Below, piece after piece: positions 12,673-28,019 of a DNA stretch of 64,000 nt. Made by a program: the position numbers and the translations under genes. Position 1 is the stretch's first letter. Every line of letters begins with the position of its first letter. The notes under the pieces are model-generated. The model did not search any database, was not told the origin of the DNA, and saw only the letters and a program-made list of their open reading frames with translations. Source of the stretch: Candidatus Nanohalovita haloferacivicina (GTDB lineage Archaea; Nanohalarchaeota; Nanosalinia; Nanosalinales; Nanosalinaceae). The stretch is from assembly GCF_029232205.1 (NCBI RefSeq), contig NZ_CP107255.1, forward strand, positions 411,781-475,780. The letters are read 5' to 3'.

Positions 12673-13851
12673 ATGCACTTCGGCGACACACACCTGGGCA
12701 GAAAACAACCCAGCCAGATAGCCGAAAAACGCGTAGAATCAACAATCAAGGCCTTCCAATTTCTAATCGACAAAGCCATAGAAAAAGACGTAGACATCAT
12801 AATACACGCAGGCGACGTATTCGACACAGTATACCCATGGCACACAGTAATCGAACAGGCCCGCGAAACGCTGGAAAAACTGGAAAAAGCAGAAATCCCA
12901 ATGTACATGATCCGTGGCAACCACGACAGAAGCTACGGCCACGGAAGAAAACTCAAAGGCCTCGCCATCGAACACCTCGAAAACCAGTACGTAAAACTAA
13001 TCGATCCTTCTCCTGAAGAATTTGGAAAACCAGCAATACAATTCAAAGGCCTGAACATCTACGGCCTCGGATACCACTCCAGTAAAACCCGGGAAATACT
13101 GGAAGACTTCTCTCCAGGAAAAGGCACCAATATCCTGCTGATGCACGACTTCGTAGAGGGAGTTACAAGAACCTACTCCAACGACTGCACAGAAGCAGAA
13201 AAACTGGCCGATAAGAACCTGGACTACGTTGCTATAGGCCACGACCACCAGCCAAACACCTGGAAAGAAATCAACGGCACAGTTTTCTCAGCAACAGGAG
13301 GAACCGTAGACTACGACTTCAACTCCACAGAGTTCGGAAACCACTACAACATAATAGAAGCCGGCCCTGAAGGCGTACAACACGAGGAAACAGGAGAAAT
13401 ACCGCAGACACTTGAATTAAAGAAGATCAGAGTGCCGGTGGAAGAGGCCCGCGTCGAACCAACCATAGGAAGAATACAGGAACTTCAGGGAGAAAGAATA
13501 GCAGTCAAAGTCATGGTAAAGGGAGAAACAGAAAAAGAACCTGGCGAGATACCTGTCCAGGAGATAGAGGCCCGAGCAAGAGAGATAGAAAAAGTTGAAA
13601 TGGTTGAAGTAGTCCTCGACCTCCAGATAAAAGGATATGAAGATACAGAATCCGGAGAGGCCTTCAGTGTCGACGAATTTCTCGAAAAAGAACTTGAAAA
13701 TCCCGAGGAATTCCGGGAGCTGCATGAAAAAACATCCTCCATGCTGGCAGACGACGAAAACCTCACCTCATCAGGAATCAACCTGAAAAAGGACGCCAGA
13801 AAAAAGCTAAGGCAGCAAGTCAAACAGAAAATCTTCGGTGGTAGTGAGTGA
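12673..13851 (+). CDS. mre11: DNA double-strand break repair nuclease Mre11
   Basis: Calcineurin-like phosphoesterase motifs: MHFGDTHLG (I), HAGDVFD (II) and GNHD (III), followed by an acidic C-terminal domain. Confidence 0.9.
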   Translation: MHFGDTHLGRKQPSQIAEKRVESTIKAFQFLIDKAIEKDVDIIIHAGDVFDTVYPWHTVIEQARETLEKLEKAEIPMYMIRGNHDRSYGHGRKLKGLAIEHLENQYVKLIDPSPEEFGKPAIQFKGLNIYGLGYHSSKTREILEDFSPGKGTNILLMHDFVEGVTRTYSNDCTEAEKLADKNLDYVAIGHDHQPNTWKEINGTVFSATGGTVDYDFNSTEFGNHYNIIEAGPEGVQHEETGEIPQTLELKKIRVPVEEARVEPTIGRIQELQGERIAVKVMVKGETEKEPGEIPVQEIEARAREIEKVEMVEVVLDLQIKGYEDTESGEAFSVDEFLEKELENPEEFRELHEKTSSMLADDENLTSSGINLKKDARKKLRQQVKQKIFGGSE

Positions 13852-16235
13852 AGCTGGAGAAACTTGAACTGGAAAACTTCAGAAAACTGAAAGACACAGA
13901 GATAAACTTCTCCAGAGGCCTGAACCTGATAGAAGGCCCAAACAACGCAGGAAAATCCTCTATACTCTACGCAATCTACTTCGCATTGACAGGAGAGGCC
14001 TTCAACTTCAGATCGCCGAAGGAATACATCAATTTTAACGAAACCAGCATGAAGGCCCGGCTAGAGTTCTCAATACAGGAAGACAGATACTACGTTATTT
14101 CTGAGTACTCGGAGACAGGAAGAGGAAACTACGAGGTAGGATCACTGAAAAACGGCGAAGAACAGGTACTTGAGTCAACAGATGGCGGCGCCCGGGTAAA
14201 CGACGTCAGAAAAAAGGTCTTCCAGTTAACAGGCCTAGACAGCAAAAGACTTGAGCACGTCAACTACGCAGCACAGCAAAAATTCGTGGAAAAAGTAGAA
14301 GGAGGTCGAAGACAGCAGGAGGCCATGGACTACATCTTCGAAATAAAAACAGTAGACGTACTCTCCAACGCAGTAAAAGACGTCATAGGCCAGAAAGAAA
14401 GAGAACTGGACGGCCTCGAAGATAAAGAAGAGAGAAAAAACGAAATAAAGAAACAGATCGAAGAGAAAAAAGAAGAAATGGGTGAAAAGAAAGAAGGCCT
14501 TCAGGAACTCAAAGAAGAACTTGAAGATAGAGAAGAGGAACTCGAAGAGGCCGAACAGGAAAAAGAGGAGAAACAGAAACAGTACAGAAAACTGAGAAAG
14601 GCCTCAGATATAGAGAAAGAAATAGAGAAACAGAAAGAATTCATCGAATCACTCAAACAAGATATAGCAGAGATAAAAGAGAAGTATGGGGAAGAAATCC
14701 TCGATAAAAAGGCCTCGCTGGAAGAAAAACTCGAAGAAGTCAATGAAAAGTTTGAATCAGTTCGGGAAAAAGCCGAGAAAATAGATAAGGCCTCCAAAAA
14801 ACTTGAGAGAAAAGAGATGAATCTCGAGAATCTTGAAGAGAAGATAGAGGAAAAAAGCGATGGAAGGGATCAACTGGAAACTCAGGCAGAGAACTTGGAG
14901 GAGAAAAAAGAATCTCTACAGAGCGAGATAGATGAATACGATTTCTCCGGCGATCTTGAAGAAGAACTGGAGGAAATTAATTCTGAAATAAAGGATCTGC
15001 GTGAGGCCAGAAGTGAGAAAAAGGCCCGGCTAGAGGATCTGGAAAACACTCATGACAGAGGAGAATGTGAGGTCTGCGGCCGTGAAGTAGAGGACCTCGA
15101 CGAATACCACAGGAGAATAGAAGATGCCAGACAGAAAATCAAGAATACTAACGAAAAGATACAGGCCGGAGTTGAGAGAAAGCAAAAGCTGGAGGAACTA
15201 GCCGAGAAAAAACAGGAGCTTGATGAAATACAGCAAGAGTTGGATGAGAGAAGCCAAGGCCTTGAAGAAACCATTGAAAAAATAGATGAGCTGGAGAACG
15301 ATAGAGAAGAGATTGAGGAAGATATCAAGATTCTGAAAGAGGCTCTGGATGAGAAAGATTCTGGCGAAGTTAAGGATGAGCTAGAGGAACTGAGGGAGAA
15401 ACGCAGCGAACTGAAAAAAGAGATATCGGAGATCAAATCCGACGAGAAAGAAGTAGAGAGGAAACAGGCGAAACTTGAGGCCCGTGAGGAAAAACTTTCA
15501 GAGCTGAAGAACAAGCTCGACGATCTTGAAGTAGAATACTCGAATATTGATTCAGAACTTGAAAAGGCCGAAAAACAGAAGGACAAGGCCTTATCCAGCT
15601 ACAATTCTATTAATTCTAAAGTTGAGGAGATGGAGAAACGCCTTCAGGATAGAGAAAGGACAGTAGAAGAGAGCAAGGAACAGCTTGAAGAACTGGAGGC
15701 CCGAGCAGAGGAGACTCAGGAAGAAGTAGAGAAACTTCAACAACTACAGGAAAGAATTGAGGAGGTGAGGGAGGCCTCTGAGAAGTACTCAATGACGGAG
15801 TCAAAAATGAGGGAGGACAGTATCCGGAAGCTGGAAAGAAAAGTTTACAGATGGTACCAGGAACTGGCCGCGGAACCAGAATTCAGCTATCTAACCATAG
15901 ATCAAGATGACTACAGGCTGAAAGGAGTTCCAGTAAATGCGGAAAGAGAGTACTCCATCAGCGACTACCAGGGAGGAGGCCAGAGAACGCTGACAGCGCT
16001 AGCATACCAACTGGCCCTCGCAGAGATGACAGGCACTGACTTCCTGATGATCGATGAACCTACTGATGCGACAGATTCGAATAATCGGGAAAACCTTCTG
16101 GAAATCATCCACAACGCAGTCAAACAGTTCAACCAGATAATCCTCATAACACATCACGGAGTAGGCCGGGAGAAGGCCGACAACATCATCAAGGTAGAGA
16201 AAGAAGGAGAGGAAAGCAAGGTAGCAACATTATAG
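13848..16235 (+). CDS. rad50: DNA double-strand break repair ATPase Rad50
   Basis: Walker A GPNNAGKSS and a long Glu/Lys coiled coil. There is a central zinc hook CEVCGRE and a C-terminal D-loop/Walker B MIDEPTDATD. It is translationally coupled to mre11 (GTG start overlapping the mre11 stop). Confidence 0.9.
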   Translation: MKLEKLELENFRKLKDTEINFSRGLNLIEGPNNAGKSSILYAIYFALTGEAFNFRSPKEYINFNETSMKARLEFSIQEDRYYVISEYSETGRGNYEVGSLKNGEEQVLESTDGGARVNDVRKKVFQLTGLDSKRLEHVNYAAQQKFVEKVEGGRRQQEAMDYIFEIKTVDVLSNAVKDVIGQKERELDGLEDKEERKNEIKKQIEEKKEEMGEKKEGLQELKEELEDREEELEEAEQEKEEKQKQYRKLRKASDIEKEIEKQKEFIESLKQDIAEIKEKYGEEILDKKASLEEKLEEVNEKFESVREKAEKIDKASKKLERKEMNLENLEEKIEEKSDGRDQLETQAENLEEKKESLQSEIDEYDFSGDLEEELEEINSEIKDLREARSEKKARLEDLENTHDRGECEVCGREVEDLDEYHRRIEDARQKIKNTNEKIQAGVERKQKLEELAEKKQELDEIQQELDERSQGLEETIEKIDELENDREEIEEDIKILKEALDEKDSGEVKDELEELREKRSELKKEISEIKSDEKEVERKQAKLEAREEKLSELKNKLDDLEVEYSNIDSELEKAEKQKDKALSSYNSINSKVEEMEKRLQDRERTVEESKEQLEELEARAEETQEEVEKLQQLQERIEEVREASEKYSMTESKMREDSIRKLERKVYRWYQELAAEPEFSYLTIDQDDYRLKGVPVNAEREYSISDYQGGGQRTLTALAYQLALAEMTGTDFLMIDEPTDATDSNNRENLLEIIHNAVKQFNQIILITHHGVGREKADNIIKVEKEGEESKVATL

Positions 16236-16958: not shown

Positions 16959-17274
16959 AAACCCTGTAAAAACCAGGCCTATGACCCTTAGCCTTCCGAT
17001 CAGAAACACTACGATTACGGCCCAGAGAAGTCTCCTGATACCTCTTCTGAGGTTTTCGAACCCACTCCCACGACTCAAACTCTCCTTCATTCCGGGCCTC
17101 ATCCAAGATGTTAACAATATTCTGAGAAATACTCCGAAGATCACCCCGAATCTCCACAGCCTCACTGTTAGGGATTTCTCTGTGAAAAAGCTCAATTTTG
17201 AGAACAGGCCCAGACTGTTTCCTCACAGCCTTTACTCCATCGATGTCTCTGAGTTTGTCGATTAGTTGTTTCAT
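16945..17274 (-). CDS. hypothetical protein (last gene of the RM-island operon)
   Basis: 109-aa ORF with a 4-bp ATGA overlap to the upstream DUF45 gene. No motif recognised. Confidence 0.4.
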   Translation of the reverse strand: MKQLIDKLRDIDGVKAVRKQSGPVLKIELFHREIPNSEAVEIRGDLRSISQNIVNILDEARNEGEFESWEWVRKPQKRYQETSLGRNRSVSDRKAKGHRPGFYRVSIQV

Positions 17275-17999
17275 TCTGTATTTTTCTCGTTTTCCAATAT
17301 TAGGGATTTGTCAAATACTAGTTGAGCACTATTTTTAGCGAGCCACTTGTTCGATCTCTGGTACTTTGGAAGTATTCCACGTACACGAGACCAGAATTTT
17401 TCACTGTGGTTTCTTTCTTCTAAATGTACTAATTCATGTACTACAACATATTCTAGGACGTGTTGTGGTGCTAGTACTAGCCGCCAATTGAAGTTTAAAT
17501 TTGATTTACTGGAGCAACTTCCCCATTTAGTCTGCTGATCTCTTATGAATATCTCTTCATGTTCCCCGTCTACTTTATCCTTATGATCCTCTATTTTTTG
17601 TTCTATCACTTCTCTTGCTCTTTCCCTAAGTGCCTTTTCAAGTTGGTCTTTCAAAGAAGTCTGTTCTACCAAATGTTCTGCTAAGATAATTTTATCATTA
17701 ATCTGATTCTTCCTAGCGGTTTGGACAGTTATCTCCTTCTCTTCACCTAAAATAGTGATTTTACTGCCGTTTGACAAGTTTCTATCTGGAATTTTTCTCT
17801 TAAAACGCAAAAATTCTTTCCGTTTCTTAGCAACCCAGCTTTCTTTCTGTTTTAGTAGTTCTTCAGCATCTAAATCTTGATCTTCGGGTATAACTACTGT
17901 AAAATCACCTAACTTATGATCGATTCTTGGCTTGGATGCTTCAGAACTGTTGCGTATACTATAGTTTATTTTCAGGCCATCAATTTTAGCTTCCATCAT
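17271..17999 (-). CDS. YgjP/DUF45-family zinc metal-dependent hydrolase
   Basis: C-terminal HELVHLEERNHSEKFW matches the DUF45/WLM-like HExxH...NHS motif. This family is commonly adjacent to type I hsdR. Confidence 0.75.
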   Translation of the reverse strand: MMEAKIDGLKINYSIRNSSEASKPRIDHKLGDFTVVIPEDQDLDAEELLKQKESWVAKKRKEFLRFKRKIPDRNLSNGSKITILGEEKEITVQTARKNQINDKIILAEHLVEQTSLKDQLEKALRERAREVIEQKIEDHKDKVDGEHEEIFIRDQQTKWGSCSSKSNLNFNWRLVLAPQHVLEYVVVHELVHLEERNHSEKFWSRVRGILPKYQRSNKWLAKNSAQLVFDKSLILENEKNTE

Positions 18000-18000
18000 A

Positions 18001-21000
18001 CTACCGATTCTTAATTACAAGATCTACGGTTTTAGACAGAAACTCATCTTTGTTCTCCTGAGCAAGCACATCAACAAAATCATGAGCCACGAGCTCCTGG
18101 ATAATTCTACGTCTTATACTCTTACGTAAAGTTGACTCCACAGAATTGAAGTCTAATGATTCTGTACTCTCAGATATTGATTCTGCTATTTCCTCTGCGC
18201 CCTCCGGTGTGAAGTATTCTGAGTAACGATCTGTAAGCAATTGGTATATAGAGAAGGAAACATCATCCATTTTCTTCCTCTGTTGTTCTGATTCTAATTC
18301 TTCTATATCCTTTCTAACTTCCTCGTACTCCTGTATTGCCTGTTCGGCATTAATATCTTCGTCCTTCCAGTCCTGGATTATTTGTTTAACCCTCTCACTT
18401 AATGATTCATAAGCAGGATTACTCTGAGCCTTCACCTCAACATTTTCTTCAAGGACTGCACCCTCTGCTGCGGCCTTGTATTCTGGTTCCTGGTCTTCTA
18501 CATGTTTTACTTCAGGAGTACCTATCTCATAGTAAACGTCTTCTTCCTCTGTTTCTATCTCATTAACCTCGAGATTTTCTTCAAGAATTTCTCTTGTCTT
18601 TTCTCTCACCTCTCCTGAAATTTTGCCTTCTTCAGGACGTGCACCTTTCTCCATCTCCTTGTACTCGAAGTAGACTTGATTAATAATTTTCCATTTTGCT
18701 ATGACGTTGTCTTCTCCCAGTTTTTCGTGAGGTTGAACAGATTCGTAGATATCTTCGGCTTCAGAAAACATTTCCAAGAATCTAGAGGCCTTACTGTCAT
18801 TCTTCCTTAGAGAAGCAACCGCTGACTGAATTGTCTCAGGATCATTTCTAAACCTAATCTCAAAGAGGTTTAGAATCTCTTCTTGAAGCTCTAAAAATTC
18901 TTCTGCAAGTTCATCCGTCTCCTTTAGGCCATCTTTGATAATATTGAATTCTTCATACTGTAGTGCTTCTTCTGGGTTGTCAAATACACCTGCGAAGTCG
19001 ACGATTTCTCCATTCTTTTTACCTGTTCTAGGTCTGTTGGTTCTAGCAATGGCTTGTAGAAGGTTATGGTTGTTCAAGTTTTTGTCGAGATATAACGTCT
19101 TTAGTACGGGGGCGTCAAAGCCGGTAAGAAGTTTGTCGCATACTACAAGAAGCTGAGGGTCTTTCTTATCATCTTTAAAGTTCTCTATAATATTTTTCTC
19201 ATCTTCTTCTGATCTGATGTACTTCTGCATGAAATCATCGTCTTTCCCATCTCCTGAGATAATAGCCTCAACTTCATCGGAGTCGCGGTACTTTCTTAGC
19301 TCATCGCAGTAAATGGCAGCAGCCCTACGTGAAGGTGTAACTACCATCCCTTTCAGGTTGATGGGCTCGACTTTGCTCTCAAAGTGATCTAGAATTTTCC
19401 GGACAACTTTCTCCACTCTAGGCCTCAGTTCTGCCAGTTCAGATTCGTTTACATATTCTCTCAAGATTTTTTTCTGCTTAGGTAAAGGAAGATCTCCGAA
19501 TTCTCCTTCAAACTCTTGGTCGAGTATTTCTTCAGGGATCTCTCCCCAGTCCACATTCATCTTAGTAAAGGTAACTTCCGTAATTACTCCATCTCTTTGA
19601 CCTTCTTCAATTGAGTAACGGTGCAGATAATCCTCTCCTGTAGGTGAGAACTCCTTAAACGTGTTCCTACCATCTTTACTGTTTTCAACTACGGGGGTTC
19701 CGGTGAAACCAAAGTAGAAAGCATCGGGCAACGCATTTCTTAGTTTACTCCCTAACTTCCCCTCAGTAAATCTATGGGCCTCATCCACGTAGACAGCGGT
19801 CTCCCCCTCTGGGTCAGCATCTATATGCGAGTTCACATTTTCAAATTTCTGGATCGTAGTAAGTACCAACTGATTCTTATTCTCTTCTAGTATATTCTCA
19901 AGATCGTTAATTGTGTCTGCTACTTCAAATATAGGAAAACCAATATCATGCAAATCATCAGACATTTGGCCTTCAAGTTTAGTCCTATCCACCACCAGTA
20001 TCTGTTGCCTGTCTTTCACGCTAGGAGACTTCTTTGCTTTATGAGCTGCAAACATCATAGTAAATGATTTTCCTGAACCTTGAGTATGCCAAATAAGGCC
20101 TTTACGTGGCTCTCCTTTTCTCATTCTCTCAATCATTCTGTTAGATGCCTGGAACTGCATATATCTCGGTACTATTTTACCTTCATCAGAGAAGAAGACA
20201 TAGTACCTGAATAGATCCATGAGCTTGTCTGGCTGAAACAGATCTGTAATCGCATTTTTGACTTCGTAGTCTCCTTCCTTAAAACTCTCTGATCTCCAAG
20301 GGAAGTAAAACTTCTGAGGAGCGCCTGTTGCAGCGTAGCGAAACCTCTGTCCATCGCTAACTACGTTGAAAAGGTTAGGTACAAACATTCTTTGAGCGTT
20401 TTCCTGATACTCGTCCATTTCATTCATCGCTTTCTGAATGGTTGAACTAGGGCCTACGTTCTTCAACTCGAACTGCACAATCGGTATTCCGTTGACTAGA
20501 AGGGTTATATCCGGCCTAACAGACTTCTTTCTCTCAAACTGAAATTGGTTTATTGCGACAAACTCGTTTTTCTCCATCAGTTCTTCTAGGTTGCTCTCAT
20601 CTTCGGGAAGATGAATAAGATCTATGTATTCGCTTTTCTCCTCACCGTCTTCATCTACGACGGTATGAGGTACGCCGTCGCGCATCTTTTCATAAAACTC
20701 TTCATTGGCGTCAAGCAGATTTTCCGCGCCCAGGTTCCGCTTTAAGTTATCAACTATTTCCTGTGCATCATCATTGGAAATGTTCTCGTTAAGTTCGACA
20801 ATTTTCTGCTTCAATAAGTTCCAGTAAACTGCTTCATCGCGGTCTCTATCGTACTTATCATCTAGCTGGCTGCCACCCCACTCGCCATTATTCTTAGGGT
20901 CTCCGTAAACATCCCAGCCGACATCTTCCAAGTAATCTAGAACTTTTGCCTCAACGCCGCCCTCAGTAGTTTGTCTCAAGTTTCCAGCACCTTTAAGATT

Positions 21001-21003
21001 CAT
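18001..21003 (-). CDS. hsdR: type I restriction enzyme R subunit
   Basis: 1000 aa. N-terminal nuclease region, helicase motif I GSGKSFTMMFAAHKA and DEAH box VYVDEAHRF. Confidence 0.9.
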   Translation of the reverse strand: MNLKGAGNLRQTTEGGVEAKVLDYLEDVGWDVYGDPKNNGEWGGSQLDDKYDRDRDEAVYWNLLKQKIVELNENISNDDAQEIVDNLKRNLGAENLLDANEEFYEKMRDGVPHTVVDEDGEEKSEYIDLIHLPEDESNLEELMEKNEFVAINQFQFERKKSVRPDITLLVNGIPIVQFELKNVGPSSTIQKAMNEMDEYQENAQRMFVPNLFNVVSDGQRFRYAATGAPQKFYFPWRSESFKEGDYEVKNAITDLFQPDKLMDLFRYYVFFSDEGKIVPRYMQFQASNRMIERMRKGEPRKGLIWHTQGSGKSFTMMFAAHKAKKSPSVKDRQQILVVDRTKLEGQMSDDLHDIGFPIFEVADTINDLENILEENKNQLVLTTIQKFENVNSHIDADPEGETAVYVDEAHRFTEGKLGSKLRNALPDAFYFGFTGTPVVENSKDGRNTFKEFSPTGEDYLHRYSIEEGQRDGVITEVTFTKMNVDWGEIPEEILDQEFEGEFGDLPLPKQKKILREYVNESELAELRPRVEKVVRKILDHFESKVEPINLKGMVVTPSRRAAAIYCDELRKYRDSDEVEAIISGDGKDDDFMQKYIRSEEDEKNIIENFKDDKKDPQLLVVCDKLLTGFDAPVLKTLYLDKNLNNHNLLQAIARTNRPRTGKKNGEIVDFAGVFDNPEEALQYEEFNIIKDGLKETDELAEEFLELQEEILNLFEIRFRNDPETIQSAVASLRKNDSKASRFLEMFSEAEDIYESVQPHEKLGEDNVIAKWKIINQVYFEYKEMEKGARPEEGKISGEVREKTREILEENLEVNEIETEEEDVYYEIGTPEVKHVEDQEPEYKAAAEGAVLEENVEVKAQSNPAYESLSERVKQIIQDWKDEDINAEQAIQEYEEVRKDIEELESEQQRKKMDDVSFSIYQLLTDRYSEYFTPEGAEEIAESISESTESLDFNSVESTLRKSIRRRIIQELVAHDFVDVLAQENKDEFLSKTVDLVIKNR

Positions 21004-21415
21004 TTAGATTCAATTCTTTTCTGGTTTTCTCAAGAAATCTCTTCGAGGCCTTCAAACACCTATCGGCTTCAGTCAGAGATACCTTGGCATTCCTGTACTG
21101 GATCTCGGTCTTCTTATCAACAACCCACTTCCTGACAGAATCAAGATTGGACTTGAAATCCTGCGAGATCATCCTTTCCTCATACATCTCCTGCAACTCA
21201 TTGGCAGTAGTAGAATGATCCTTATTGGTATGGCCTCTATTCTCCAACATTAAAGCATCATTACACTTAATCATCGCCATAATACAGTTCACAACTACAG
21301 GATTCCAGATATCGGAGTCTTGCTCAAGCAAGTTCTCCCGAACCTTCTCCGCACCATAAATATAGGCCTCCGCCTCTTTAATCGACTTACTTGACCTTTG
21401 CACGAAGAGAATCAC
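20993..21415 (-). CDS. HEPN-domain protein (putative toxin of HEPN/MNT pair)
   Basis: 140 aa all-helical protein. RGHTNKDH fits the Rx4-6H HEPN motif. It overlaps the MNT gene stop by 29 bp and the hsdR start by 11 bp. Confidence 0.5.
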   Translation of the reverse strand: MILFVQRSSKSIKEAEAYIYGAEKVRENLLEQDSDIWNPVVVNCIMAMIKCNDALMLENRGHTNKDHSTTANELQEMYEERMISQDFKSNLDSVRKWVVDKKTEIQYRNAKVSLTEADRCLKASKRFLEKTRKELNLNES

Positions 21416-22025
21416 CCCATAAAACTTCTGAATCTCTCACAACATTTTGCTCAAACCGTTTCTTGTTTTCATAGTTTTCAGTAAACTCGGATTCGGTTTC
21501 TACCACAGGAACAATTTCTTTATCCGACTTACTCCTTGATTTGTTAATTATCTGGTTCTTGACATAATCTGTGTCAACACCGTCCTCAACCACAAATAAA
21601 ATATCAATATCTGAATTAGAGTCGGCAGTACCACGCGCAACACTACCGAAAAGAACCACACTCACAATCTTTTCTTCCATCTCATCCGAATCCATCAGCT
21701 CATGGACAAAACTATCAGCTTCCTTAAAAAGTGGCGTTACCTCTACCTGGAAAATAGCGTCAACGGCATGGAAATAACGAGAATCCTGATTAAACTCGAC
21801 CAAGTAGGAACTACCTTTCTTCCTAATCCTCACCAAATCCAAATCCTCCAACTCACGGATAAAATCCCTGACAGCAGGATAAGAACCATCAACACTCTCA
21901 GCAACCTCATTAATCGTAAACATCTGATCAGGCCTATCCCTCAAAAACTCCAACACCTGACCACGATACTCCTTACCCAACAAATCCACAAACCTCTCTG
22001 CCATATTACAACCTCTTTGATCCAA
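21387..22025 (-). CDS. minimal nucleotidyltransferase (MNT) with N-terminal winged-helix DNA-binding domain
   Basis: NTase signature LFGSVARGTADSNSDIDILFVVED (GS-x9-13-DxD). The N-terminal approximately 90 aa look wHTH-like. Confidence 0.75.
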   Translation of the reverse strand: MDQRGCNMAERFVDLLGKEYRGQVLEFLRDRPDQMFTINEVAESVDGSYPAVRDFIRELEDLDLVRIRKKGSSYLVEFNQDSRYFHAVDAIFQVEVTPLFKEADSFVHELMDSDEMEEKIVSVVLFGSVARGTADSNSDIDILFVVEDGVDTDYVKNQIINKSRSKSDKEIVPVVETESEFTENYENKKRFEQNVVRDSEVLWGDSLRAKVK

Positions 22026-22062
22026 AACTTAAATGTTTAAGTTTTTCCTTAAACGATTAAGG
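22026..22062. promoter_or_regulatory. palindromic operator/promoter upstream of MNT-HEPN-hsdR
   Basis: Two perfect inverted repeats, AACTTAAA-TG-TTTAAGTT and CCTTAA-ACGA-TTAAGG, in the 71-bp AT-rich gap upstream of the MNT gene. Confidence 0.4.
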
Positions 22063-22096
22063 ATTTTCTTGAAGATTTTATTCTGGTTTTTAATTT

Positions 22097-23170
22097 TCAA
22101 AGTATCGGCCTCTTGACAAGTTTCATCGGTTTTTGAGAATGTTCTCTGAAAGATATAGTTAGGTAGTCCTCGTCCTTGATTTCCGCTCTCATGCTTTTGG
22201 CTAGAACCTCTCTAATCTGTGAATCGTCTTCTATAAGATACTCGTTTTCATCAGCTCTATCATCGTTTTCGAGAGCACTAATTACTGGCTTGACAAGGTT
22301 ATCGACATCCAGAGCGTTATCTTTGTCCGTGTAATGATAGACAATCGCAACATCAATTTCACTGTCTTTGTAATCCTCAAAATTTTCGTTCTTCATCCAG
22401 TTTGCCAAGTCAGTCCGCAAGTCCTCAATATTCTCAAAATTTTCTCTCCCACGGATAACCTTGTTGAAACCACCATGATAACCAACTGAATCAATCAAAA
22501 CATCGCCCTCCTGATTCGCCCAGTGAGACATATCCTTCAAAACCTCAATCTTGTCGTTATTTATCACGTAGACTCCGGCCTTATTCTTCAGGTAATGGAA
22601 ATTCTCATTCACTCTGAATAAAGTTCCATAGTACTCGTCCTTCTCAGTCTCAATAAATACGGCACGCTCGTCCTTCTTCATCTGGCTATATAGATCAGCG
22701 GTAGCAGTCGAAAAAATCACAAAACACGTTAAACCAAAGATACCGCCCCAAACACCGAAACTGAAAAATCCAAGAGAAGCAGTAAAACTCAGCACAGTAG
22801 AGAAAAACAAAATTTTCCAAATCTCCCAATCCTCATCGATCAAGTCGTTATCCGTCTCCCTGTAGTAATCAAGTTTTCTACTCATCCAGATAATCGCAGG
22901 CCCCAAAATCAGAAATGAACCACCAAATAAAACCTGCATAACCGAGTCACTAAACCTCAATCTTAGAGGTACGCTCAACAGAAAACTCATAGCCAGAGGA
23001 ATAACCATGAAGAGAATAACAAAAGCCACACCATGACCATACCTGTCAGTATCATCCTTCAAATCAAGATCCCTATCAGAAATCTTCTTGCCATAAAAAT
23101 AAACTGCAGCAGCAACCAAAGCACCAATAAACGAAAAATTAAGAACCAACCGAACCTCAGGAACAGCCAT
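22097..23170 (-). CDS. membrane-anchored RusA-like (Holliday-junction-resolvase family) nuclease-domain protein
   Basis: The N-terminal approximately 170 aa carry four predicted TM helices. The C-terminal domain carries DVDNLVKPVISAL…YLIEDDSQI, which aligns with the E. coli RusA catalytic core DLDNLQKAAFDAL…LDDAQV. It is a paralog of ORF 23565..24077. Confidence 0.55.
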   Translation of the reverse strand: MAVPEVRLVLNFSFIGALVAAAVYFYGKKISDRDLDLKDDTDRYGHGVAFVILFMVIPLAMSFLLSVPLRLRFSDSVMQVLFGGSFLILGPAIIWMSRKLDYYRETDNDLIDEDWEIWKILFFSTVLSFTASLGFFSFGVWGGIFGLTCFVIFSTATADLYSQMKKDERAVFIETEKDEYYGTLFRVNENFHYLKNKAGVYVINNDKIEVLKDMSHWANQEGDVLIDSVGYHGGFNKVIRGRENFENIEDLRTDLANWMKNENFEDYKDSEIDVAIVYHYTDKDNALDVDNLVKPVISALENDDRADENEYLIEDDSQIREVLAKSMRAEIKDEDYLTISFREHSQKPMKLVKRPIL

Positions 23171-23572
23171 TCAATACCTGCCTCCCGTCGGAGTATTCAT
23201 CTCATATTTTGCAGTCCAGTAAAACAGGCCTGTCGCAACATAAATCAAACCTGTGAAAATCCCCTGAATAGGAGTCTGGAGCACTACAGCAGTCAAAGGC
23301 ATCAAAGAATTCGCTATCGAGATAAAAATCGCCTTAATAGCAGGACCAGCAGCCTCAACAGAACCAGAAGTCAACGCACCCCAGTTCAGCAAAAGAGAAA
23401 AACCGGTATTCAAAGCCAAAGCAAGCCCTGCACCAGTACGGTAAATATTCCTCCACTGTCCTGGTCCTGCCAACAAGTTACCTTTCGCATAATTCTTAGC
23501 CTGAGGACTAAATAGGCCTTTATGCGATTGAGTTCTCCTTCTCCGAGGTCTCTTCTTCCTTCTTCTACTCAT
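23171..23572 (-). CDS. small poly-basic membrane protein
   Basis: N-terminus MSRRRKKRPRRRRTQSHK followed by three hydrophobic helices. Stop and start abut the flanking RusA-like genes. The start is placed at the internal Met of ORF 23171..23593. Confidence 0.45.
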   Translation of the reverse strand: MSRRRKKRPRRRRTQSHKGLFSPQAKNYAKGNLLAGPGQWRNIYRTGAGLALALNTGFSLLLNWGALTSGSVEAAGPAIKAIFISIANSLMPLTAVVLQTPIQGIFTGLIYVATGLFYWTAKYEMNTPTGGRY

Positions 23573-24077
23573 CCAGATAACCCCGTCCAGCAACCATCTT
23601 CATAGGTTTTTCCGGATCATGTTCTCTGAAAGAAATCGTAATCCTGCCATGAGCCTCCCTCCAATCACCATTTTCTGTCTTATCTATTTTCACATCTTTC
23701 TGAATTTGATCGGTCTCACGTTTGATTTTCTTCGTCAAAATTCGGATAATCTGTGAATCGTCTTCAACAAGATAAGGTTCATCTTCCTCACTATCCTCTA
23801 AAACCGTAACACCGCTACTACCGTCAAGAGCGGAAACAATAGGCTTCACCAAATTATCAATATCCACAGCATCGTCTTCCCTCCAATACTCATACACAAT
23901 TGCCAAATCAATTTCCTTATCCCTCAAATCATCAAAAACCTCATTATTCAACCACATACCTAAATCTCTCCGAATCCTCTCAATATTTTCCCCAAGTCCA
24001 TCATTTCCTAAACGCTTGTTGAAACCACCCATCCTACCAACAGCATCCTCCAAATTCAACCCCTCAGCATGAGACAC
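23565..24077 (-). CDS. RusA-like nuclease-domain protein (soluble paralog)
   Basis: IDLAIVYEYW…DIDNLVKPIVSAL…YLVEDDSQI…ITISFREH aligns with RusA (VKIRIECHM…DLDNLQKAAFDAL…LDDAQV…LELTITE). It is about 45% identical to the C-domain of ORF 22097..23170. It lies 5 bp downstream of hsdS. Confidence 0.55.
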   Translation of the reverse strand: MSHAEGLNLEDAVGRMGGFNKRLGNDGLGENIERIRRDLGMWLNNEVFDDLRDKEIDLAIVYEYWREDDAVDIDNLVKPIVSALDGSSGVTVLEDSEEDEPYLVEDDSQIIRILTKKIKRETDQIQKDVKIDKTENGDWREAHGRITISFREHDPEKPMKMVAGRGYLDE

Positions 24078-24082
24078 TAGCC

Positions 24083-25447
24083 CTACACCTCCACAACCTC
24101 ATCCAACACCTCAACACCCTCAGAAGTACGAACACTCCCAGTCAACAAATCCTGCATAAGGCCTTTCTTCAGAGATTGGAGCTGCTCCTTCTCTTCCTTG
24201 TAAGTTCTAATTTGGTTCTCATAAGTTGATAGGATTTCAGCTATTCTTTTCTGTTCCTTCAAAGGAGGTATTGGCATCTCAAATTTCCTTAAATCGCTGG
24301 TATTCAGGTGTTTGACTGTAGTTCCAACTGAAACAGATTTTATTAGCGATCTACCAATTTCAGAGTTCATGAAATAAGCCACATACTCCGGATAAACTTC
24401 CTTCTCATCGAATCTAGTGATTATCAGGGCATGACAATTGGCGTTGTCATATCTCTCAGGAACTATAGCGGATTCTCCTATATGTCCTGACTGAACTGTC
24501 AGCATATTTCCCTCATAAATCCTAGTATCCTGATTATCTTCATGGAACTCCTCCGAAATCTCTACCATTTCATCTTCAGAATCTATTTTGTTTGGTCTAA
24601 CGTTGAAGCTCTGAAGATAAGGAATTCCACCTTCCTCATAATAGGGAGTAGCAGTTCCTACGAACCCATTCCGTATCTCAGTTGAAACTTCCAACATCTG
24701 TTTTTTCTCCCAGTTCTCTGGAAGCTCAAATGTTTTTGGCCCTATTCGGACTTCTTTTAGCTCTCTTCCATCTATCCCCTCGTTCATTAGGTCCTGCATC
24801 AGGCCTTTCTTGACCCGCTGGGTTTGCTCGATGATTTCCTCCGTCTTACTGATCGCCTGATCCACATTATACAGAACCGACGCAATCCGGCGTTGCTCGG
24901 ATTTTGGAGGGTGAGGAATTTCGTGTAGTTTGAGAATATTTTTCCCGATGTTCGCCTGTGTGGTCTCCCTTTTCTTGCTAGCAAGTCTGTCTTGCTCGAA
25001 GTCAAGAGCGTAACGGGCAAACTGGATATTTGTGTCTTTTGGATCCCAGAGGCCTATGATTCCCTGATTTGTGGAAACTGGCGCTGTGACAATCCCGGTT
25101 TCGCCGAGAGTTCCGTAGATTGTCAGAAGGATTGTTCCAGGATCATAGATTCGAGTTTTTCCGTCTTCTATTGCTTGCTGAGTTGTGTATTCCTTAGCAT
25201 CTGAGATTCCATCTCCTTGCTGTCTGTTGAGGTCTTCAATCTTGACGAATGGAATATCTCCACCTTCCCAATATTTGTCTTTTCCTCTTTTCGGGGTGCC
25301 TCCGCTTTTAATTCCGTCAAATATGTCGCCAATTTTTTCTGAGGTCCAGCCTTCTGTCTCTTTAGTCTCTTCTCCATCTAATGAGCTTGAGCTTTCTACA
25401 GAGTCAGAAATATCTCCGAGTGAGGCCTGGTTACTCATCATTCTCAC
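24083..25447 (-). CDS. hsdS: type I restriction-modification specificity subunit
   Basis: Two target-recognition domains, each followed by a conserved helix (QRVKKGLMQDLMNEG and QSLKKGLMQDLLTG). Confidence 0.85.
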   Translation of the reverse strand: MRMMSNQASLGDISDSVESSSSLDGEETKETEGWTSEKIGDIFDGIKSGGTPKRGKDKYWEGGDIPFVKIEDLNRQQGDGISDAKEYTTQQAIEDGKTRIYDPGTILLTIYGTLGETGIVTAPVSTNQGIIGLWDPKDTNIQFARYALDFEQDRLASKKRETTQANIGKNILKLHEIPHPPKSEQRRIASVLYNVDQAISKTEEIIEQTQRVKKGLMQDLMNEGIDGRELKEVRIGPKTFELPENWEKKQMLEVSTEIRNGFVGTATPYYEEGGIPYLQSFNVRPNKIDSEDEMVEISEEFHEDNQDTRIYEGNMLTVQSGHIGESAIVPERYDNANCHALIITRFDEKEVYPEYVAYFMNSEIGRSLIKSVSVGTTVKHLNTSDLRKFEMPIPPLKEQKRIAEILSTYENQIRTYKEEKEQLQSLKKGLMQDLLTGSVRTSEGVEVLDEVVEV

Positions 25448-26003
25448 CTTCTTTCTCTTCTAGGACTTTTTCAAGAAGTTCTTTGATGTCTTGTATTTCT
25501 TTCTTCATCTCTGTAATTTCTTTGCTTGTTTTCTCATTTTCCTTTATCCTATCTCTCTGAAGATCGAGTAGTTCGATAACTGCCCCATGATATTTTTGTT
25601 CAGCCACATTTTCTCTACGTTCAGATTCAAGTTTTTCCTCTTCAACTTCCTCTTTCATCTTCTCTATTTTGGCTTTTTCTTCGGTAGAGCTTTTTTCTAG
25701 TTCTACTTGTTCTTTCCAGGCCTTCAGGTTACGAAGTTTCCTGTTGATTTGATCTTCGTATCTATTCTGTCTTTGTTTACTATTTAGACCAATCGCTCCT
25801 GTAACTACATCAGGATAGAGATTATCTTTTTTCTCTTCTCCATCCGAGAAGGCAGTTTTCGCAAAGTTATCTAATCTTGTTTCCATCTCCTTTTTCTCTT
25901 GCTTACCTTTCTCATAAGAAAGTTCTAGAAGGCCCTCTGCCTGCTTTATGAACTCATCTATCTTTTCTTCTGCTTTTTCAGGATCTATTTGAAGCTTACT
26001 CAT
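25431..26003 (-). CDS. coiled-coil hypothetical protein inserted between hsdM and hsdS
   Basis: 190 aa, Glu/Lys-rich heptad pattern. It overlaps the hsdM stop by 8 bp and the hsdS start by 17 bp. Confidence 0.5.
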   Translation of the reverse strand: MSKLQIDPEKAEEKIDEFIKQAEGLLELSYEKGKQEKKEMETRLDNFAKTAFSDGEEKKDNLYPDVVTGAIGLNSKQRQNRYEDQINRKLRNLKAWKEQVELEKSSTEEKAKIEKMKEEVEEEKLESERRENVAEQKYHGAVIELLDLQRDRIKENEKTSKEITEMKKEIQDIKELLEKVLEEKEGENDE

Positions 26004-27480
26004 AGTTGAGGGCCTCCATGTGTTCTTGCATCTGGTTTTCGATTTCTTCTCTTTCTGATTGGAGTTCTTTCAGTTTCTCCAGTTCTTCGGCGACTTCTAT
26101 GTTTTCTTCGGGTTGGGTGGTGTCGACGTAGAGGGCGATGTTGAGGTTGTAGTCGTTTTCGCGGATTTCTTCGAGGTCGACGACTCGGGAGACTCTTTCC
26201 TCGGTTTCCCAGTTCCTGTATTTTTCCACGATTTCTTTGATTCCGTCTTCTGTGAGTTTGTTCTGGTTGCTGAGTTCTTCGTAGAAGTTTTCGTCGGCTG
26301 CGTGGATGAACTGGACTTGTCCTTCTCTTTCTTCTGGTTTGTCTTTGTTGACTATGAGGATTCCTGATGGGATTGAGTTGTTCTGGAATAGGTTTTCTGG
26401 TAGGCCTATGACTGCTTCTACCATGTCGTTTTCTAGCATTGGTTCTCTGAACTTGCTCTCATGTTTTCTGAAGAGGACTCCGTGTGGTATGACGCAGGCC
26501 ATTTTTCCTTCTTCGTTCAGTGATTTGATCATGTGCTGGATGAATGCGTAGTCGGCTCTGTCTGCTCGTGCCATTCCCCAGTCGAAACGGTTGTATTTGT
26601 CGTCCTGGCATGCGTCTTTCTGCCAGTCAGCTGAGAACGGAGGATTGGCTAGTACATAGTCAAACTTCTCTAGTTTGCCGTTTTCCGTGAACTGTGGGTT
26701 GGCGAGTGAGTCTTCCCGCGTGATTTCTCCGTCTAGGTCGTGTAGGAATAGGTTCATTCGTGCGATTGGTGCGATTCCAGGGTTGATTTCCTGGCCTTTC
26801 AGCAATAGATCTTTCTTGGGGTCGCCGATTTCTCTGTAGTGTTCGGCCATTTCTACGAGCATTCCTGCTGATCCAACTGTTGGATCGTAGATCTTGATGG
26901 TTCCGTCTCCGTTCTCAGGGTTCAGTACGTCGGCCATTAGCTGGACCATCTCCTGTGGTGTGAAGAACTGTCCGCCATCCTTTCCTTCTGATTCAGCAAA
27001 GTCCCGAACGAGATCCATGTAGGCTTCTCCTAGAATATCTGGTTTTACTCTTTGCAGAGACATGTTTTTCGTGTTCAGGTGTTCGAGCATACGGTGAAGA
27101 GTATCGTGATCGATTCCGTCCGCATTCACGAAGTTGACTCTGAAGATATTCTCAAGTTTCTCTGGGTTTTCGGATTCTAGTGCGTCAAATGCTTCGTTTA
27201 GGAACTGATCTACGTTTTCTGTCTGTTCTAGAGCTTTTTCGTATCTGTAGTCTTCCGGGATTTGGAAGTCGTGGAAGGCTTGGTCTTTTGCTAGTTCTTC
27301 GTCTCCTGTTTCTTCCAGTGCTTCTTCGTACCGGTCCTGGTATGTGTCATCTATTGCTTTATAGAAGACGACGGGTAGTATGTATGTTTTGTAGTCTGTA
27401 GGGTCTACTCTGTCTCTGATGATGTCTGCGCATTTGAAAAGATGGTCGCGTAGTTCTTCTTCGGTGATTTCTTTTGCCAT
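25996..27480 (-). CDS. hsdM: type I restriction-modification N6-adenine DNA methyltransferase subunit
   Basis: HsdM N-terminal domain, SAM motif I VGSAGMLV and catalytic motif IV LANPPFS. Confidence 0.9.
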   Translation of the reverse strand: MAKEITEEELRDHLFKCADIIRDRVDPTDYKTYILPVVFYKAIDDTYQDRYEEALEETGDEELAKDQAFHDFQIPEDYRYEKALEQTENVDQFLNEAFDALESENPEKLENIFRVNFVNADGIDHDTLHRMLEHLNTKNMSLQRVKPDILGEAYMDLVRDFAESEGKDGGQFFTPQEMVQLMADVLNPENGDGTIKIYDPTVGSAGMLVEMAEHYREIGDPKKDLLLKGQEINPGIAPIARMNLFLHDLDGEITREDSLANPQFTENGKLEKFDYVLANPPFSADWQKDACQDDKYNRFDWGMARADRADYAFIQHMIKSLNEEGKMACVIPHGVLFRKHESKFREPMLENDMVEAVIGLPENLFQNNSIPSGILIVNKDKPEEREGQVQFIHAADENFYEELSNQNKLTEDGIKEIVEKYRNWETEERVSRVVDLEEIRENDYNLNIALYVDTTQPEENIEVAEELEKLKELQSEREEIENQMQEHMEALNYE

Positions 27481-28019
27481 TAGTTTTGAACCTCGTCTAG
27501 TATTTTTTCAGCTTCTTCTTCAATTTTTGAGTTGTCAATAAATGCGTTCGATCTGTCTGTTATTAGTCCTAACATTTTTGCTTCTCCTTCTGTCTCTCTG
27601 AGAACTCTGTCGGTTTCTTTAAATACTGAATTCAACGATTCAAGATCTTCTCTGTTCTTTGCTACCCGTAAAACTTCGATAATTGTGTCTTGAACTCTCT
27701 GAGAGGTGACTTGTTCTGAGATATTTTTCTTTACGAAAGTCCTCAACTCGTTTAGCTGGTTGGGTTCCTCGCTTCTTCGTACGAGAAATGTCTCTATGTG
27801 TTCGCGATAAAGTTGTTGTATTTTCTCTAAATTGATATCTAGTTCTTTCTCTCCTTCTACTAGTTTCTTATCTCGTAGTTTCTTGACATTGTTTGAGACA
27901 GCGCCTTTACTGAGAGAGGTGTTCTCGACAAGCTCACTCTGTCTCTGAGGGGAATTATGGGCCAATGCGGAAAGTATTTCAAGTTGGCCTTTGCCAGTAT
28001 TGTCTGTGAGTATTCTCAC
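27480..28019 (-). CDS. winged-helix transcriptional regulator (MarR/ArsR-like) at head of RM operon
   Basis: N-terminal wHTH, QLEILSALAHNSPQRQSELVENTSLSKGAVSNNVKKLRDKKLV. Its stop abuts the hsdM start. Confidence 0.55.
   Translation of the reverse strand: MRILTDNTGKGQLEILSALAHNSPQRQSELVENTSLSKGAVSNNVKKLRDKKLVEGEKELDINLEKIQQLYREHIETFLVRRSEEPNQLNELRTFVKKNISEQVTSQRVQDTIIEVLRVAKNREDLESLNSVFKETDRVLRETEGEAKMLGLITDRSNAFIDNSKIEEEAEKILDEVQN

Follow-up and report, generated by a model that had tools for sequence, protein, structure and literature searches.

A 64,000-nucleotide (nt) stretch of the genome of Candidatus Nanohalovita haloferacivicina (contig NZ_CP107255.1, positions 411,781 to 475,780; hereafter the window), a nanohaloarchaeon (DPANN) with a 1.05-Mb genome, contains a type I restriction-modification (RM) operon with an embedded cassette of three genes, two of which encode domains related to the Holliday junction resolvase RusA. 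Comparison of these proteins with their homologues indicates that a small, mostly archaeal RusA-like subfamily is a recurrent accessory cassette of type I RM operons. An earlier sequence-only reading of the window had placed the three genes between hsdS and a block composed of MNT, HEPN and hsdR genes; the corresponding open reading frames (ORFs) were found there on the minus strand, packed as that reading described. The genes and the parts of their products (aa, amino acids; TM, transmembrane; AF2, AlphaFold 2) are as follows.

23565–24077, minus strand: soluble RusA-like nuclease, 170 aa, predicted catalytic residues D72, D74, K78 and D107
23171–23572, minus strand: small 3-TM membrane protein, 133 aa, with a polybasic N-terminus MSRRRKKRPRRRR (hydropathy, charge)
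22097–23170, minus strand: 357-aa membrane protein with a RusA-like domain
22691–23170, minus strand: predicted five-TM-helix anchor of the 357-aa protein, aa 1–160 (AF2 helices, hydropathy)
22526–22678, minus strand: predicted five-strand β-barrel linker of the 357-aa protein, aa ~165–215 (AF2)
22100–22525, minus strand: C-terminal RusA-like nuclease domain of the 357-aa protein, aa 216–357, with DVDNLVK and EDDSQI intact

RusA enzymes are Mg2+-dependent, dimeric, structure-selective DNA endonucleases, and Escherichia coli RusA is the Holliday junction resolvase of prophage DLP12 (Pfam PF05866; PDB codes 1q8r, 2h8c and 2h8e). Judged by sequence profiles and structure models, both copies in the window are, in our firm opinion, divergent but genuine members of the RusA superfamily. 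The profile search, which covered 1.84 billion representatives at a cut-off of E 1e-3, gathered 85 proteins, 69 of which matched Pfam RusA at E ≤ 0.01 (best 1.1e-10). The 357-aa protein itself matched this profile with an E-value of 0.045 (14.8 bits, residues 249–328 against profile positions 27–113), and PHROG_140, “RusA-like Holliday junction resolvase”, was matched with E-values of 0.02 (170-aa copy) and 0.31 (357-aa copy). The hhalign comparison of a 42-member family profile with the E. coli RusA sequence (E 4.4e-6, probability 87%) aligned D70-L-D72-N73..K76 and D90-D91-A-Q93 of RusA with D-x-D-N..K and D-D-S-Q of the family, so that the catalytic-core alignment proposed by the sequence-only reading was reproduced with the Asp and Lys motifs in register. 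The Asp-Asp-Lys-Asp tetrad is kept in both window copies and in 78 of the 85 representatives. A Foldseek search with the AF2 model of the 170-aa protein placed E. coli RusA in all seven top PDB positions (E 4e-3 to 2e-2, TM-score (target) 0.54–0.65, probability 0.96–1.0), and the matches ranked below were unrelated and of low probability. The profile, structure and residue-conservation checks proposed with the RusA assignment thus all came out in its favour. A direct search of the 170-aa protein against PDB sequences gave no match, and a match to MG377 obtained with a three-sequence profile against PDB sequences (E 0.1) was rejected as spurious; NCBIfam yielded no useful match for the three window proteins, and its RusA model was weakly matched by two of the 42 family members. 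The subfamily also has invariant residues of its own, namely D57 and a C-terminal I-S-F-R-x-H..K-x-M motif, and the C-terminal RusA-like domain shows invariant columns across the clade of membrane fusions.

The two copies are paralogous: the 170-aa protein aligns to residues 214–352 of the 357-aa protein with 44% identity (E 1e-34), much more than chance would give, and the motifs GGFNK, IDxAIVY, DxDNLVKP, EDDSQI and ISFREH..KPM, all quoted in the earlier reading, are present in both. The duplication suggested there held as paralogy but not as a recent tandem event, which was rejected on two grounds: the 170-aa copy is ~50% identical to each fusion-clade domain, its neighbour included, and in a neighbour-joining tree (no bootstraps) it groups with the soluble proteins P0002 and P0007, nested among the fusion proteins.

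In the nanohaloarchaeal clade, the RusA-like gene lies between hsdS and hsdR in 11 of the 11 informative loci, i.e., the window, L001, L002, L003, L005, L006, L007, L008, L031, L040 and L041; a scan of metagenome contigs contributed L031 as its sole new locus. The gene orders are listed below, where RusA(sol) is the soluble copy, TM-RusA the membrane fusion and wHTH a winged helix-turn-helix protein.

Window: hsdS – RusA(sol) – small TM – TM-RusA – MNT – HEPN – hsdR
L001 and L040: hsdS – RusA(sol) – hsdR
L041: hsdS – RusA(sol) – 87-aa membrane protein – MNT – HEPN – hsdR
L002: hsdS – unrelated ~100-aa 2-TM ORF – TM-RusA – 96-aa protein – DUF2283 – RHH – ParE – hsdR – YgjP
L003: hsdS – TM+barrel paralogue – TM-RusA – RHH – ParE-like – AbrB-like – PIN – hsdR – YgjP
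L005: hsdM – SduA_C – hsdS – TM-coiled-coil-TM – TM-RusA – RHH – ParE-like – hsdR – YgjP
L006 and L031: wHTH – hsdM – hsdS – small-TM homologue – TM-RusA – hsdR
L007: TM-RusA – RHH – hsdR – YgjP
L008: hsdM – hsdS – TM-RusA

The cassette is inserted after hsdS, sometimes after hsdM, and is packed against it, often overlapping it; start/stop overlaps with hsdS are common among the loci. The wider 150-aa subfamily, as seen in a scan of genome contigs with an alignment of 12 closer sequences, is mostly archaeal, with members in Nanoarchaeota, Woesearchaeota, Micrarchaeota, Methanosarcinales/ANME and Archaeoglobi and in a few bacteria, and includes soluble representatives in Methanosarcinales and Bacteroidota (L011 is from Methanosarcinaceae, L010 from Bacteroidota). 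Of 14 informative loci of this wider subfamily, seven adjoin type I RM genes and three more adjoin toxin-antitoxin (TA) or abortive infection (Abi) genes, these being raw counts without a background frequency. The first group comprises six type I RM operons (L009, L010, L011, L012, L014 and L023) and one gene adjoining an HSDR_N-domain protein (L017), and the second comprises neighbours of MNT-HEPN, RHH-PIN or AbiEii (L013, L015 and L020), in line with the expectation that homologues would be met in defence contexts. The remaining loci have a Rep_1 replication protein as a neighbour (L018), non-defence neighbours (L016 and L021) or are uninformative (L022). In L018 (544–1491), a Woesearchaeota contig, the soluble RusA-like gene stands near the Rep_1 rolling-circle replication protein, so that some family members may be carried by small plasmids or viruses. 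Scans of 2.9 million viral contigs (IMG/VR) revealed no close relatives.

The slot between hsdS and hsdR is also the slot of prrC, and in L001 and L040 the RusA-like gene is the sole gene in it, which brings in another explanation, that of a PrrC-like guard acting by abortive infection. The nuclease would then be held latent by contact with HsdM/HsdS or by sequestration at the membrane and, when a virus inactivates the restriction enzyme, would attack DNA, that of its own cell included. The gene is packed against or overlaps hsdS, suggesting co-expression with the methylase/specificity unit, TA pairs are regular neighbours, and PrrC is hardly ever found embedded outside type I RM (10.1101/2024.01.29.577857). 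However, the family is also present without RM genes (L013, L015 and L020), and searches of the three window proteins for a PrrC/RloC-type ABC-ATPase or the PrrC family returned no match (Pfam, NCBIfam, PADLOC). Moreover, PrrC is an ABC-ATPase joined to an anticodon nuclease, to which these proteins have no sequence or domain kinship, and RusA is not known to be toxic when expressed; such a guard seems to us rather unlikely.

In the window, a single minus-strand gene string (17271–28019) carries the whole cassette together with the type I RM genes. HsdM, HsdS and HsdR are all present and intact in one cluster (18001–27480), and the type I RM and MNT neighbours named in the earlier reading were confirmed by Pfam, the HEPN-like one through its homologue in L041. 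The genes around the cassette are as follows.

27480–28019, minus strand: winged-helix (MarR/ArsR-type) regulator at the operon head (Pfam MarR_2 1.7e-8, HTH_5 1.1e-6)
25996–27480, minus strand: hsdM, type I methyltransferase subunit (Pfam N6_Mtase 7e-92, HsdM_N 4e-22)
25431–26003, minus strand: 190-aa acidic Glu/Lys-rich protein between hsdM and hsdS (ORF)
24083–25447, minus strand: hsdS, specificity subunit with two target-recognition domains (Pfam Methylase_S 7e-48, two stretches)
21387–22025, minus strand: wHTH-MNT nucleotidyltransferase, a TA component (Pfam NTP_transf_2 1.3e-10, Polbeta 2.9e-9)
20993–21415, minus strand: HEPN-like gene paired with MNT, 140 aa (58% identity with its L041 counterpart)
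18001–21003, minus strand: hsdR, restriction/translocase subunit (Pfam HSDR_N 1.5e-32, SWI2_SNF2 3e-52, ResIII, T1R_D3-like)
17271–17999, minus strand: YgjP-like metallopeptidase, the usual terminal gene of these operons (Pfam YgjP-like 1.2e-48)

The distance from hsdS to the 170-aa gene is 5 nt, the stop of the 170-aa gene overlaps the ATG of the small gene by 8 nt, and the TGA of the small gene is immediately followed by the ATG of the 357-aa gene. This tight packing ties the three cassette genes to the hsdM-hsdS part of the operon, and it probably reflects their co-transcription with hsdM and hsdS. A 71-nt AT-rich gap (22026–22096) separates the 357-aa gene from the MNT gene, the genes upstream of it being packed or overlapping; MNT, HEPN and hsdR could have a promoter of their own in this gap. 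Among the PADLOC candidate families, PDC-M05A is matched by the wHTH-MNT gene (E 1.2e-22). The HEPN-like ORF of the window had no Pfam match; its L041 counterpart follows an MNT gene and shows a weak Pfam HEPN match. No significant family match was found for the 190-aa Glu/Lys-rich protein (Pfam, PADLOC, NCBIfam). A 208-aa wHTH homologue also precedes hsdM in L006 and L031, and YgjP comes after hsdR in L002, L003, L005, L007, L023 and L027. The hsdM-hsdS gap is a second variable insertion point of these operons and elsewhere contains SduA_C, a Shedu-type nuclease (L005), or a 154-aa protein (L029 and L030); in L001, hsdS is preceded by a gene for a 259-aa protein. The TA pair that separates the RusA cassette from hsdR differs among the relatives (RHH-ParE, RHH-PIN, AbrB-PIN and MNT-HEPN).

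The membrane-RusA fusion is a conserved nanohaloarchaeal architecture. It is represented by ten proteins of 301–430 aa that end in a RusA-like domain and have three to five hydrophobic segments, and the β linker is visible in the aligned members of the set. AF2 modelling of the window protein predicted TM helices at residues 3–31, 40–72, 75–105, 113–138 and 140–164, in which the hydropathy profile concurs, and β-barrel strands at 169–175, 179–187, 191–196, 199–204 and 208–213, with a predicted local distance difference test score (pLDDT) of ~75–80. The sequence-only reading had proposed one soluble copy and one copy anchored by four TM helices: the 170-aa copy indeed has no TM segment by hydropathy and the other copy is anchored, but by five predicted TM helices and a β-barrel rather than by four helices. 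Loop 1, loop 3 and the stretch after TM5 contain 12 Lys/Arg residues versus three on the opposite side, and by the positive-inside rule this bias predicts that the N-terminus lies outside and the nuclease domain in the cytoplasm. In L023 (Nanoanaerosalina), the order is hsdS – soluble RusA-like gene – separate 261-aa TM+barrel protein – hsdR – YgjP, and homology to the N-terminal part of the fusions extends along the entire 261-aa protein; this case of fusion/fission suggests a functional link between the nuclease and the membrane module. A separate TM+barrel gene of similar build is present in L003.

The small ORF between the two RusA-like genes encodes 140 aa if read from a TTG (23171–23593) or 133 aa from the ATG at 23572. 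As the sequence-only reading described, the product has three hydrophobic segments and a polybasic N-terminus. It has 15 Lys/Arg among the first 45 residues and an isoelectric point of 11.3, and the gene is conserved. Seven homologues were found. The three closest full-length relatives (P0089, P0090 and P0092) retain the polybasic tail, with substitutions and one in-frame indel, and a YA.GNLLAGPGQW motif is conserved among distant relatives; a non-coding artefact was rejected in view of these homologues and the motif conservation. The NCBI product is 100 aa long (P0091, starting with MAGPGQW), and the conserved motif lies upstream of its start, which, together with the conservation of the polybasic tail, better supports the 133-aa product. 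The tail is predicted from the sequence to be cytoplasmic. All homologues with known flanks lie between hsdS and hsdR, and in L006 and L031 they are paired with a TM-RusA fusion. The small protein also occurs without any RusA gene (L027–L030, treated below) and so need not be a partner of the nuclease; it is an RM-operon accessory in its own right and not an obligate nuclease partner. The module of nuclease plus membrane partner proposed in the earlier reading is not a fixed one, since the combinations vary and the small protein also occurs where there is no RusA gene, and the idea of the three cassette genes as an obligate unit was likewise rejected, as the hsdS-hsdR slot holds varying combinations. 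The 87-aa membrane protein of L041 gave a weak hhalign match to the small protein (probability 18%).

An exact 18-nt direct repeat, TTCTACTCATCCAGATAA (plus strand), is present at 22876–22893 and 23563–23580, with a chance expectation of ~1e-4 in 2.3 kb. The first copy lies within the 357-aa gene, after TM3, and codes for I-I-W-M-S-R; the second, in the same frame (W-M-S-R), extends over both the stop codon of the 170-aa gene and the start codon of the small membrane gene. The repeat may be a recombination scar within the cassette. The GC content over ~17–29 kb of the window is mostly 0.39–0.43 (hsdM reaches 0.48) versus ~0.46 in the flanks, as would fit an island gained by horizontal transfer; its edges showed neither a tRNA nor an integrase, the sole tRNAs of the window being at 2762 and 50716. 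The 18-nt repeat, shared by the junction between the 170-aa and small genes and the inside of the 357-aa gene, and the low island GC might also be read as signs of a role in cassette maintenance or mobility, with the resolvase promoting the moving or reshuffling of the RM operon or of the hsdS target-recognition domains. The gene directly adjoins hsdS, and the content of the hsdM/hsdS/hsdR interval varies greatly among close relatives, which points to frequent recombination. Nevertheless, there is one hsdS per locus, with no inverted hsdS copies or site-specific recombinase as in hsdS shufflons, the membrane anchor is left unexplained, and junction resolvases are not known to initiate recombination, which makes a mobility role very unlikely.

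The reading that we favour, tentatively and as something short of probable, is that of an RM-coupled, structure-selective, second-line DNA nuclease effector acting near the membrane, whose nuclease activity and defence role we infer. In it, the nuclease would serve as the second-line effector of the type I RM system and cut branched or abnormal DNA, such as the replication or recombination intermediates of an invader or, alternatively, junction-like structures where HsdR translocation stalls. Cutting would take place close to the membrane, where foreign DNA enters. In the nanohaloarchaea, the nuclease would be kept at the cytoplasmic face of the membrane either by fusion to the five-TM + β-barrel module or by pairing with membrane proteins encoded separately, among them the TM+barrel protein and the small polybasic 3-TM protein. 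The soluble copy may pair with the anchored one, a possibility proposed because RusA is generally known to act as a dimer, and the defence role is proposed from the operon position and from the precedents of PrrC and TgvAB. A stricter version, in which the nuclease is mechanistically coupled to the type I enzyme and cuts stall-derived cruciform or junction DNA or escaping viral intermediates at the membrane, where the TM+barrel and polybasic small proteins would position or gate it, is doubtful; if true, it would represent a new structure-specific, membrane-tethered effector class on RM, largely of reduced-genome archaea.

The catalytic core is conserved, and RusA is a bona fide Holliday junction resolvase of recombinational repair, so self-repair or restriction alleviation has to be considered too: where the host's type I enzyme breaks both strands of the host's own DNA, as at stalled forks or under a newly acquired specificity, the resolvase would help to mend the breaks by resolving the Holliday junctions of homologous recombination. 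A repair function travelling with the RM cassette is plausible in reduced DPANN genomes. Genes for a Mre11-like phosphoesterase (392 aa) and a Rad50-like SMC ATPase (795 aa) adjoin the RM island just outside it (12673–16235, plus strand) and would fit such a function, though they are housekeeping genes in archaea. Yet a repair resolvase has no obvious need of a membrane anchor or small membrane partners, and the TA/Abi neighbours outside RM operons suit conflict systems better; we consider self-repair unlikely.

Several observations tell against the second-line effector reading favoured here. Neither copy reaches the Pfam RusA gathering score of 22.8 bits, and the 170-aa protein is not matched by this profile at all; falling under the curated annotation thresholds, both copies are labelled “hypothetical protein”. 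The AF2 models are of moderate confidence (pLDDT 68 for the 170-aa and 63.5 for the 357-aa protein), and modelling of the full-length 357-aa protein gave a RusA domain of poor quality. Canonical RusA is a resolvase of repair and recombination, with no known role as a toxin or in defence. In L027–L030 the homologues of the small protein lie in RM operons without any RusA gene, and in L016 and L021 the family members stand among housekeeping or glycosyltransferase genes. The loci are few, most of them on short metagenomic contigs of hypersaline origin, and the substrate, the cytoplasmic orientation, the heterodimerisation and the defence role are points that we infer. Finally, the tetrad is degenerate (K-N-R-E instead of D-D-K-D) in P0080, a 340-aa representative of the TM+barrel+RusA-like fusion, which suggests a non-catalytic variant of the membrane protein. 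The degenerate P0080 site, along with the typically phage-borne nature of RusA, could also be taken to mean that the genes are decaying, functionless remnants of a viral RusA gene. This explanation is already disfavoured and barely credible: both window ORFs are intact, as is the tetrad in the great majority of the representatives (78 of 85), the position is conserved over loci whose proteins share only 30–50% identity, and close relatives are missing from the 2.9 million viral contigs.

Each kind of element seen here is known, both the RusA superfamily and accessory genes that lie inside RM operons; their combination, the archaeal distribution and the membrane tether appear undescribed. Full-text searches of the literature turned up no account of RusA-like genes within type I RM operons. 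PADLOC v2.0.0, including the PDC and HEC sets, gave no match for the three window proteins at E ≤ 1, and for the 42 wider-family members at E ≤ 0.01 it gave seven scattered weak matches (best E 7e-4), each to one or two members, with no model covering the family. The genome paper of the host organism mentions only a type III RM system. If the effector reading is true, it would offer a first entry point to the poorly known antiviral defence of DPANN/nanohaloarchaeal symbionts, and the soluble representatives of Methanosarcinales and Bacteroidota make the hypothesis testable in tractable hosts.

Compared with E. coli RusA, the subfamily has the same α/β fold by Foldseek and a core domain of similar size, and D70-x-D72-N73..K76/D90-D91-x-Q93 of RusA corresponds to D72-x-D74-N75..K78/D106-D107-x-Q109 of the 170-aa protein. 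The identity to the 170-aa protein in structural alignments is, however, only ~12–14%, the subfamily has an extra N-terminal segment besides its own invariant residues, and one of its lineages is fused to a five-TM + β-barrel anchor. The subfamily is also cellular, mostly archaeal and embedded in type I RM operons, whereas RusA is phage-borne and, to our knowledge, has been known only as a phage or prophage Holliday junction resolvase. PrrC of EcoprrI shares with the present genes the placement of a nuclease gene between hsdS and hsdR, and the minimal order hsdS – nuclease – hsdR recurs in L001 and L040; unlike the RusA-type DNA nuclease, PrrC combines an ABC-ATPase with a tRNA anticodon nuclease. 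TgvAB, a GmrSD-like type IV restriction system embedded in a type I locus of Vibrio cholerae VPI-2, likewise interrupts a type I RM operon with a nuclease cassette of several genes, and its independent, complementary defence has been proven experimentally (PMC11411939). TgvAB differs in being a bacterial, soluble GmrSD/DUF262-type system that targets hypermodified cytosines, whereas the activity of the cassette described here is a prediction. In the guilt-by-embedding approach, genes that are repeatedly found inside type I RM, BREX or DISARM operons are predicted to serve in defence (10.1101/2024.01.29.577857); the same embedding logic applies here as to the PDC/HEC candidates, one of which, PDC-M05A, is matched by the neighbouring MNT gene. 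An RM-wired, cellular and mostly archaeal RusA subfamily would, if the effector reading is true, add a structure-selective DNA nuclease to the RM-embedded effectors beside PrrC and TgvAB, and its membrane-anchored form would be a further variant of such an effector.

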